A DNA stretch of 56,645 nucleotides from a virus. Lineage: Duplodnaviria; Caudoviricetes. The translations under genes and the position numbers were made by a program. This document shows, in pieces, positions 154 to 690 of the stretch. Numbering within the stretch: the stretch's first letter is position 1; each line of letters opens with the position of its first letter. The stretch spans positions 1 through 56,645 of the IMG/VR virus record IMGVR_UViG_3300024302_000397, one strand, 5' to 3'. The notes under the pieces were generated by a model. It did not search any database and was not told the origin of the DNA. It saw only the letters and a program-made list of their open reading frames with translations.

Positions 154-690
154 TTAACCCTCTAATTCAGGTAAATCGATAGGTGGCCAGTCAGGTACTT
201 TTGTTTTTAATTGTAAATTAAGGTCAGTTAATACTTCTTTAATTTCGTTTAATGAGTTACGACCTAAGTTAGGCGTTCTCAATAAATCTCGCTCAGATTT
301 TTGAATTAAATCACCAACAAAGAAAATCTCCTCTGCCCTCAAACAATTAGCAGTTCTAGAGGATAGCTCTAAACCATAATACGTCTGTATTAGATAGCTC
401 TCCGGAAAATCTTTAACTGTTTTTATAACGATTGGTTCAGCTCCGTCTGTTAAAGATTCACCTTCTTTGTTTAAGTTACTATATGGGATAGTCAATTCAA
501 ATTCTTGAGCATCTCTAGTAAAGTAGTGAGTTAATTTGCAGTAACTGTTTTTATAGTTCGCAACACCACTTATTGTGGATACTACAATGAAATCATCATC
601 CATCTCAATAGTTAACGTACCGTTACGTTCAGCATGTGCATGCATATTGATAAAATTTAATAAATCAGTCATGACATTAATCCAGGACAC
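154..690 (-). CDS. Protein with C-terminal bacterial RNA polymerase alpha-subunit C-terminal domain (alpha-CTD) and unknown N-terminal domain
   Basis: C-terminal [48 protein letters not shown]...WPP aligns by eye, without gaps, to proteobacterial RpoA CTD (E. coli [48 protein letters not shown]...WPP). The N-terminal ~105 aa do not resemble alpha-NTD. Confidence 0.88.

Follow-up and report, generated by a model that had tools for sequence, protein, structure and literature searches.

The window considered here is the whole stretch of DNA that was analysed, the 56,645-base record of a marine N4-like phage whose completeness is put at about 76%. Between positions 154 and 690 it encodes a protein in which a small phage-specific domain is fused to what is, by sequence, a bona fide C-terminal domain from the alpha subunit of RNA polymerase (alpha-CTD), captured from a host of the SUP05 clade (Thioglobaceae). 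As for its role, we favour, with somewhat less than even confidence, a trans-acting alpha-CTD mimic which would compete at the UP-element/sigma-4 sites of host promoters.

The ORF is intact at 154..690 on the minus strand and gives 178 aa when counted from the GTG at 690. The start is more likely to be the ATG at 672: all database homologs (P0001-P0005) have MTDLL as their first residues and, as read from the sequence, this ATG and the stop codon of the ORF before it share bases in an ATGA, which makes 154-672 (172 aa) the likelier gene. The remaining 673..690 is the 3' end of the upstream ORF, read in another frame. The features of the gene and its immediate surroundings are as follows.

154..672, minus strand: fusion-protein gene, 172 aa, stop codon 154-156 (ORF, homolog starts, ATGA overlap)
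673..690, minus strand: six additional codons to the GTG listed by the ORF finder, probably untranslated (homolog starts)
418..672, minus strand: N-terminal phage-specific domain, residues 1-85 (no PDB or fold match; own family and P0124 only)
157..417, minus strand: RpoA-derived part, residues 86-172, with the linker end (KDFPESYL), alpha-CTD and WPP tail
226..375, minus strand: core Pfam RNA_pol_A_CTD match, 68.3 bits (genome search)
223..317, minus strand: 95-nt patch with 92.6% DNA identity to rpoA of the Ca. Thioglobus genome L007
256..258, minus strand: codon AAC, giving Asn where E. coli has K298 (AAA or AAG, Lys, in hosts)
669..941, minus strand: Cys-rich 90-aa ORF upstream (phrog_29060), its stop overlapping the fusion-gene start

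The Cys-rich ORF has a CxxCxxC motif and further Cys residues, and adjoins the fusion gene upstream in the window as well as in four metagenome loci. Scanning positions 1-2600 for promoters and terminators gave nine promoter-like sites against 10.6 expected from shuffled sequence, and no terminators. Neither megablast of window 1-6000 nor tblastn of the upstream ORF gave a match in the phage collection.

The C-terminal half was identified by several searches. The Pfam family RNA_pol_A_CTD (PF03118) matches at 66.6 bits (gathering cut-off 23.8, E 1.6e-18) and is the only family found in the fusion protein at E<=1; the alpha N-terminal domain (PF01193/PF01000) is absent by Pfam, as are ADP-ribosyltransferase and GNAT domains (E<=1). 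All 52 matches of a PDB sequence search at E<=1 are RNA polymerase alpha subunits, with a best E of 4.7e-22, and ORF residues 82-173 (178-aa numbering) there stand opposite E. coli alpha residues 236-326. PHROGs offered no family and just two weak matches of other kinds (E 0.012 and 0.079). In a MAFFT alignment with E. coli RpoA (from NC_000913), R265, N268, C269, N294, G296, S299, E261 and W321-P322-P323 are kept, K298 being replaced by N. This bears out the initial annotation, which had described, from the letters alone, an alpha-CTD with R265, N268, C269, G296, S299 and the WPP tail retained and K298 changed to N. A compact helical fold with two helix-hairpin-helix motifs may be inferred from the 44-66% identity to RpoA alpha-CTDs; the AF2 model of the whole protein (5 sequences) had a pLDDT of 45 and is not usable. 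The likeness to RpoA starts at the linker end and extends through the WPP tail, with 63-66% identity to host proteins and the DNA-contact residues kept. RpoA is however about 310-350 aa long and carries the alpha-NTD for dimerisation and assembly, whereas the phage protein has 172 aa, no alpha-NTD and N in place of K298. The genes also differ in their setting, rpoA being found in a ribosomal-protein operon (rpsM-rpsK-rpsD-rpoA in E. coli) and the phage gene in a block of replication genes.

The residues R265, N268, C269, G296, K298 and S299 make up the DNA-contact ('265') determinant of E. coli, and five of the six are present in this allele. Position 298 is N here and in P0005, and K in P0002, P0003, P0004 and L087. 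In E. coli, UP elements are used far less well by the K298A mutant, and the window protein may accordingly bind DNA less strongly. R265, N268, C269, N294, G296, S299 and E261, the last presumably a sigma-4 contact, are invariant in all six N4-like alleles, while the positions of the E. coli 287-determinant and 317/318 are variable among them, which argues against a conserved activator-contact surface. These patterns bear on a reading that we consider quite unlikely, namely that the protein is a decoy for a protein partner of alpha-CTD (for example NusA with its C-terminal acidic repeat, or an activator of the host) rather than for DNA, which would alter pausing and termination or turn off activator-dependent host genes. 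The NusA of a Ca. Thioglobus genome (491 aa, C-terminal HHH_5 at 430-485) is of E. coli-type size and layout, and K298N would presumably lower DNA binding while leaving the protein surfaces intact; yet it is the DNA-contact set that is the most conserved surface, both in these alleles and in other viral alpha-CTDs, and the putative activator-contact positions are those that vary.

The N-terminal part was said in the initial annotation to be an unrelated domain of 105 aa. Since homology to RpoA already begins in the interdomain linker (KDFPESYL, protein residues 86-93, or about 86-92 in the 178-aa ORF), the unrelated part is shorter, about 85 aa; the claim that it is unrelated stands, in that no relation to RpoA or to a solved structure was detected. 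A profile of residues 1-85 found nothing credible in the PDB (best E 1.4) and no alpha subunit even at E<=10. For this reason the pairing of N-domain residues 26-62 with E. coli alpha 200-235 in the MAFFT alignment was rejected as an alignment artefact. The fold search which had been suggested for this part was run and gave no match above background. The AF2 model of the domain (7 sequences, pLDDT 64) has one helix packed on four strands, with low confidence; Foldseek of this model against PDB and BFVD gave no match at E<=0.001, the best Z of a wide VIA-align search was 6.3 (Mediator and cystatin-like rows), below the stated background of 7-8, and the ESM Atlas gave no usable match. Among 1.84 billion representative proteins the domain matches only its own family, P0124, three repetitive artefacts and one further protein. 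P0124 is an 87-aa protein consisting of the N-domain alone (hhalign probability 97%, E 8e-11). Prediction of a two-copy N-domain complex gave a median of 0.37 against a mark of 0.42, which has no bearing either way on dimerisation.

The gene was described from the outset as phage-encoded, and the rest of the contig confirms this, with genes for a virion RNA polymerase, an RNAPII-like polymerase and an N4-type SSB. The principal markers are listed below.

2481..3869, minus strand: DNA helicase, upstream of the fusion gene and in the same transcription direction (phrog_1967, 3.9e-91)
4357..6177, minus strand: T7/N4 RNAPII-like single-subunit RNA polymerase, 606 aa (phrog_2051, 1.1e-109; phrog_2166, 'N4-like RNA polymerase'; PF00940)
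46299..54422, plus strand: virion RNA polymerase, 2707 aa, an N4-like hallmark (phrog_2206, 8.2e-191)
54902..55630, minus strand: N4-type single-strand DNA-binding protein (phrog_743, 1.6e-51)

The contig also carries N4-type portal, capsid and terminase genes, with phrog_1357 and phrog_1216 among the N4-type matches, and its capsid protein has 52-58% identity to the counterparts in N4-like phages, N4 included. By its gene content the carrier is thus an N4-like phage (Schitoviridae). The fusion gene belongs to a block on the minus strand, in which it comes after the genes for the RNAPII-like polymerase and the helicase, and in L083, a 100% identical metagenome contig, it is followed downstream by two small ORFs and then DNA polymerase. 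By position it would be a middle or replication-region gene. PMC11445570 describes how in N4 the virion RNA polymerase transcribes the early genes and RNAPII the middle genes, after which the SSB redirects the host polymerase to late promoters. In the phage collection, tblastn with the fusion protein found 19 matching records, none of which is N4-like, while the capsid protein matches 474 records; the fusion gene is therefore outside the core N4 programme.

Some further features of the carrier were noted. The RNAPII-like polymerase is a single ORF of 606 aa, matched by phrog_2166 at residues 11-411 and by phrog_2051 at 286-537. As N4 RNAPII is a gp15:gp16 heterodimer according to PMC11445570, the polymerase at window 4357-6177 may be a fused form of it. 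The virion RNA polymerase, with 2707 aa, is shorter than the roughly 3400-3500 aa usual in N4-like phages, and its PHROG match spans profile positions 2266-3072 of 3406. Transcription diverges at 7900-8373, with early and middle genes on the minus strand to its left, and genes for packaging and structure on the plus strand to its right; judging from the N4 layout, this gap may be the site of genome ends or terminal repeats in a permuted assembly.

The origin of the captured domain was sought first among host proteins. One genome per species was scanned; 532 of the 600 candidate stretches were confirmed, and the best 80 loci were kept. The best 20 of these 80 are gammaproteobacterial, with Alphaproteobacteria next, and 14 of the 20 are named Ca. 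Thioglobus, Pseudothioglobus, Vesicomyosocius, Ruthturnera, SUP05 cluster or Bathymodiolus thiotrophic symbiont; those best loci show identities of 58-65% across 81-85 residues, or of 72-73% across 67. Among 201 Gammaproteobacteria genomes sampled evenly (189 with a match), the Pseudothioglobus genome came out top (65%, 111 bits), the runners-up being at 60% and 58% and all others at 57% or less; two genomes in this sample are marked as unpublished and underlie none of the claims made here. One Thioglobaceae subgroup also shares the linker motif DFPP[MI]YL. At the DNA level, the top 21 of 46 matches all belong to the SUP05/Thioglobaceae clade, the best being the patch in L007 (92.6% over 95 nt). 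Phage and host are identical at 77-89 of the 95 positions, which is inside the host-host range of 75-92 of 95, and the L088 allele reaches 94.7% over this patch; five of the seven differences between the window and the L007 rpoA are synonymous. The CTD types of L086 and L087 have just 73-75% DNA identity to the host. No phage CTD type is nearer to another phage type than to host RpoA, the one in the window having 63-66% protein identity to host RpoA versus 55-59% to other phage types. Our reading is that the CTD was captured from a SUP05-clade host, and that the type shared by the window and L088 would stem from a later exchange with host rpoA, or from a second capture.

A phylogeny against RpoA had been proposed as the means of identifying donor and host. 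The maximum-likelihood tree was built from 65 CTD rows (6 phage, E. coli and 58 RpoA) and 93 columns, leaving out of the 80 loci L021, in which no motif was found, and 21 with a CTD identical to a retained row. The phage rows form one group (89/84), which stays unplaced between the gamma and alpha clades on account of long branches and of there being only 93 columns, and the tree therefore names no donor. It is the protein, DNA and linker matches that uphold the proteobacterial host suggested in the initial annotation and narrow it to SUP05/Thioglobaceae. The G+C of the contig (36-42%) presumably fits the composition of these hosts. The captured CTD thereby offers a direct sequence-based assignment of an uncultured N4-like phage to sulfur-oxidising SUP05/Thioglobaceae bacteria.

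The full architecture was found in five clusters, with 99, 76, 67, 65 and 61% identity to the window protein, and seven metagenome loci were recovered with the family; IMG/VR scans with the fusion protein, the family alignment and P0124 found no relative, in a set from which the record of the window itself may have been left out. A Cys-rich ORF (90-113 aa) directly precedes the gene in the window and in four of the seven metagenome loci (L083, L086, L087 and L089, the last being a CTD-less allele), and its product is a candidate partner of the N-domain. Compared with the window, the DNA of L086 is 95-100% identical in the N-domain and 51-83% in the CTD, while for L088 the values are 46-64% and 93-100%, respectively. 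By these comparisons the two domains have separate histories and recombine independently among related phages. In L089, the 88-aa protein follows the P0004 type as far as '...VDDLI', after which come the final residues of the same type, 'DLGKQ.D'; the whole alpha-CTD is thus cleanly absent, in frame, with the N-domain retained. Together with the stand-alone N-domain of 87 aa, this allele indicates that the CTD is dispensable in some lineages, and the separate histories of the domains make it a module that has been swapped, and lost at least once, while the N-domain persists. The codon differences are too few for a test of selection, amounting to 0-1 for L083, L084 and L085 versus the window, to 3 synonymous and 8 non-synonymous in the N-domain of L086, and to 4 and 3, respectively, in the CTD of L088.

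The existence of N-domains without a CTD, and the nearness of part of the CTD to host DNA, are what one would see if the CTD were a recently captured, functionless host fragment riding on a functional N-domain gene. We regard this as very improbable, given that the frame is intact in five diverged alleles, that CTD types differing as much as 51-83% in DNA identity are all retained, that most of the differences in the patch are synonymous, and that at least 25 other phage contigs also encode short proteins with an alpha-CTD.

These other proteins came from an IMG/VR scan with a CTD-only alignment, which gave at least 25 further loci (L091-L115) with ORFs of 115-434 aa, or 23 distinct proteins once L093 (identical to L092) and L111 (identical to L105) were dropped. 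All 23 score above the RNA_pol_A_CTD cut-off of Pfam, and the alpha N-terminal domain is missing from every one of them. In PHROGs their CTDs are unmatched, except for two weak phrog_1660 matches. R265 and S299 are present in all 23, N268 and G296 in 22 and K298 in 21, some of these being favoured by the scan patterns themselves. Two are fusions to other domains, Sigma70_r4 in L101 (L101:3479-4183) and HTH_3 in L113 (L113:3674-4171). The neighbouring genes are phage genes, coding for RecT/Erf annealing proteins, RecE-type exonucleases, helicases, terminase and portal. Cultured phages have such proteins as well. Roseobacter phage CRP-701 gp9 (197 aa), annotated as 'DNA-directed RNA polymerase subunit alpha', is encoded between two PD-(D/E)XK nucleases, with an SSB gene nearby. 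In the PMC9127768 passage, ORF40 of Erythrobacter phage vB_EliS-L02 is annotated as an alpha-CTD protein and not studied further. No functional study of a phage-encoded alpha-CTD was found in a full-text literature search, which most subscription journals lie outside. The window protein resembles CRP-701 gp9, vB_EliS-L02 ORF40 and the 25 IMG/VR loci in having no alpha-NTD and in its placement in early or replication regions, and most or all of these proteins likewise keep R265, N268, G296 and S299. It differs from them in its WPP tail (P323 is found in 0 of the 23) and in its N-domain, which is unique to this N4-like lineage, the others having different partner domains or none. With the module in at least 25 phage contigs as well as in the roseophage and Erythrobacter phage isolates, these proteins may represent a common but little-studied class of takeover factors.

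Some database sequences (P0006-P0009, P0016, P0035, P0051, P0046 and P0058) are other alpha-CTD proteins that are not RpoA. Among them are tandem double alpha-CTDs of alphaproteobacterial type, and proteins in which an unrelated N-domain is followed by a degenerate HhH repeat and then by an alpha-CTD; of these latter, one is on a 1.07-Mb contig that is probably chromosomal.

The genomic neighbourhoods raise the question of whether the domain serves as a generic helix-hairpin-helix DNA-binding module in replication or recombination, with no part in transcription. The window gene lies between helicase and DNA polymerase, a RecT/Erf or RecE-type gene is nearby in at least 7 of the 13 neighbour-scanned loci (L095, L099, L100, L101, L107, L109 and L112), and the nucleases and SSB around the CRP-701 gene point the same way. 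Position is however weak evidence, as phages keep genes for host takeover and for replication side by side in their early and middle regions. The window protein moreover includes the linker end and WPP tail of RpoA and is 63-66% identical to host alpha-CTD, which argues for mimicry of alpha over reuse of a generic fold and makes this explanation unlikely.

The reading that we favour, an alpha-CTD mimic acting in trans, would combine two modules. The first (residues 1-85), a small, phage-only alpha+beta domain that also occurs by itself, would supply self-association or a phage partner. The second (residues 86-172), corresponding to the last ~87 residues of the alpha subunit of a SUP05-clade bacterium, would occupy the same sites as the alpha-CTDs of the polymerase itself, i.e. 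the minor groove of A/T-rich UP elements, beside sigma region 4. We infer this competition from the UP-element contact residues, all of which are kept except K298; work in E. coli has established that these residues bind UP-element DNA beside sigma region 4. Host promoters that depend on UP elements or activators, such as the rRNA promoters, would be weakened, leaving more host polymerase for the phage late promoters. The gene lies between helicase and DNA polymerase, among genes that would be read by RNAPII, as in N4, before the host polymerase is redirected to late genes, and a phage that has early and middle polymerases of its own would be at an advantage if the strongest promoters of the host were weakened by then. 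We prefer this interpretation because the DNA-contact surface is the most conserved, because phages are known to attack that contact, and because an N4-like phage would profit from it; retention of the architecture and gene neighbourhood in five diverged alleles lends it further support. Against the mimic stand the weak DNA binding of an isolated alpha-CTD, K298N, the CTD-less L089, the variable activator-contact positions and the absence of the gene from the core N4 programme; K298N and L089 cut both ways for the decoy or tether role suggested in the initial annotation.

Three known phage systems act on the same contact. According to PMC3694059, gp67 of Staphylococcus phage G1 binds sigma region 4 so that alpha-CTD is kept off UP elements, and promoters of the rRNA type are selectively hit; the same outcome is proposed here, but gp67 blocks the site, whereas the phage copy would compete for it, and the two are set apart by the description of gp67 and by Pfam (PF03118 only in the fusion protein). 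T4 ADP-ribosylates R265 of alpha (same source), and LUZ19 Rac induces cleavage of the alpha linker (PMC7552054). Both thus act on alpha-CTD to reprogram host transcription, and the phages with Rac encode their own RNA polymerase, as does this phage. Unlike these enzymes, the ADP-ribosyltransferases Alt and ModA of T4 and the acetyltransferase Rac of LUZ19, which modify or detach the alpha-CTD of the host, the fusion protein lacks any enzyme domain and is an alpha-CTD in its own right. The known routes against the alpha-CTD/UP contact are to modify it (T4), block it (G1 gp67) or cut it off (LUZ19 Rac); an own copy would be a fourth, based on mimicry. A broader generalisation is possible but more doubtful than the mimic itself: many phage lineages might deploy a captured host alpha-CTD in trans, alone or fused, for transcription takeover, with the copy in the SUP05 phage kept host-like by repeated exchange with rpoA and competing at promoters.

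The same contacts could also be used to the benefit of the polymerase. In this explanation, which we hold to be rather unlikely, the protein is a positive adaptor whose N-domain binds a phage component (for instance the Cys-rich neighbour, the N4-type SSB or phage DNA) while the alpha-CTD docks on sigma region 4 or upstream DNA, recruiting or stabilising host polymerase at late promoters as an additional alpha-CTD provided in trans. Late transcription of the N4 type does rely on host polymerase plus a phage protein (PMC11445570), and the contig has the SSB. E261, a sigma-4 contact, and the DNA-contact residues are the same in 6/6 alleles, the N-domain is conserved, also occurs by itself and invariably comes after the same Cys-rich gene, and alpha-CTD is joined to DNA-binding domains in other phages (Sigma70_r4 in L101, HTH_3 in L113). 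An adaptor is harder to reconcile with the absence of the gene from the cultured N4-like phages searched, with the CTD-less L089, and with local sigma-70 promoter-like sites being no commoner than in shuffled sequence. N4 SSB (gp45) is itself an activator of late transcription that acts on host polymerase at the middle-to-late switch, according to PMC11445570, and a homolog is present on the contig; it is unrelated to the alpha-CTD fusion, which is an extra, lineage-specific gene. The alleles at hand, one without CTD, others with swapped N-domains and CTDs and with either K298 or N298, constitute a natural variant set.

The stretch is present in 20 public runs from 17 studies, 6 of them metatranscriptomic. 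In all four metatranscriptome libraries compared, contigs cover the gene with 0-1 mismatches (X16 over 223-1219, X3 and X20 over 226-744, X19 over 291-711), although presence in RNA libraries is no proof of transcription, as DNA carry-over is possible; such contigs give neither strand nor level, and their depth cannot rank expression. Libraries X3, X19 and X20 also hold far deeper contigs (88 to 2268) that match 223-315 alone, with flanks unlike the window on both sides. These read a Lys codon at place 256, the X19 piece having 5 mismatches, and are probably the host's own rpoA mRNA, co-occurring with the phage. Two strain differences were seen close to the gene. L083 has a 538-nt insertion (L083:118-655; window ~1301-1305) that the window does not have and that contains a 169-aa HNH-type endonuclease-like ORF (L083:136-645), which looks like a homing-endonuclease polymorphism. 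Contigs of X19 and X20 join 941 to 1526, skipping 584 nt (ORFs 955-1317 and 1307-1543), and probably represent a strain variant without these two small genes.
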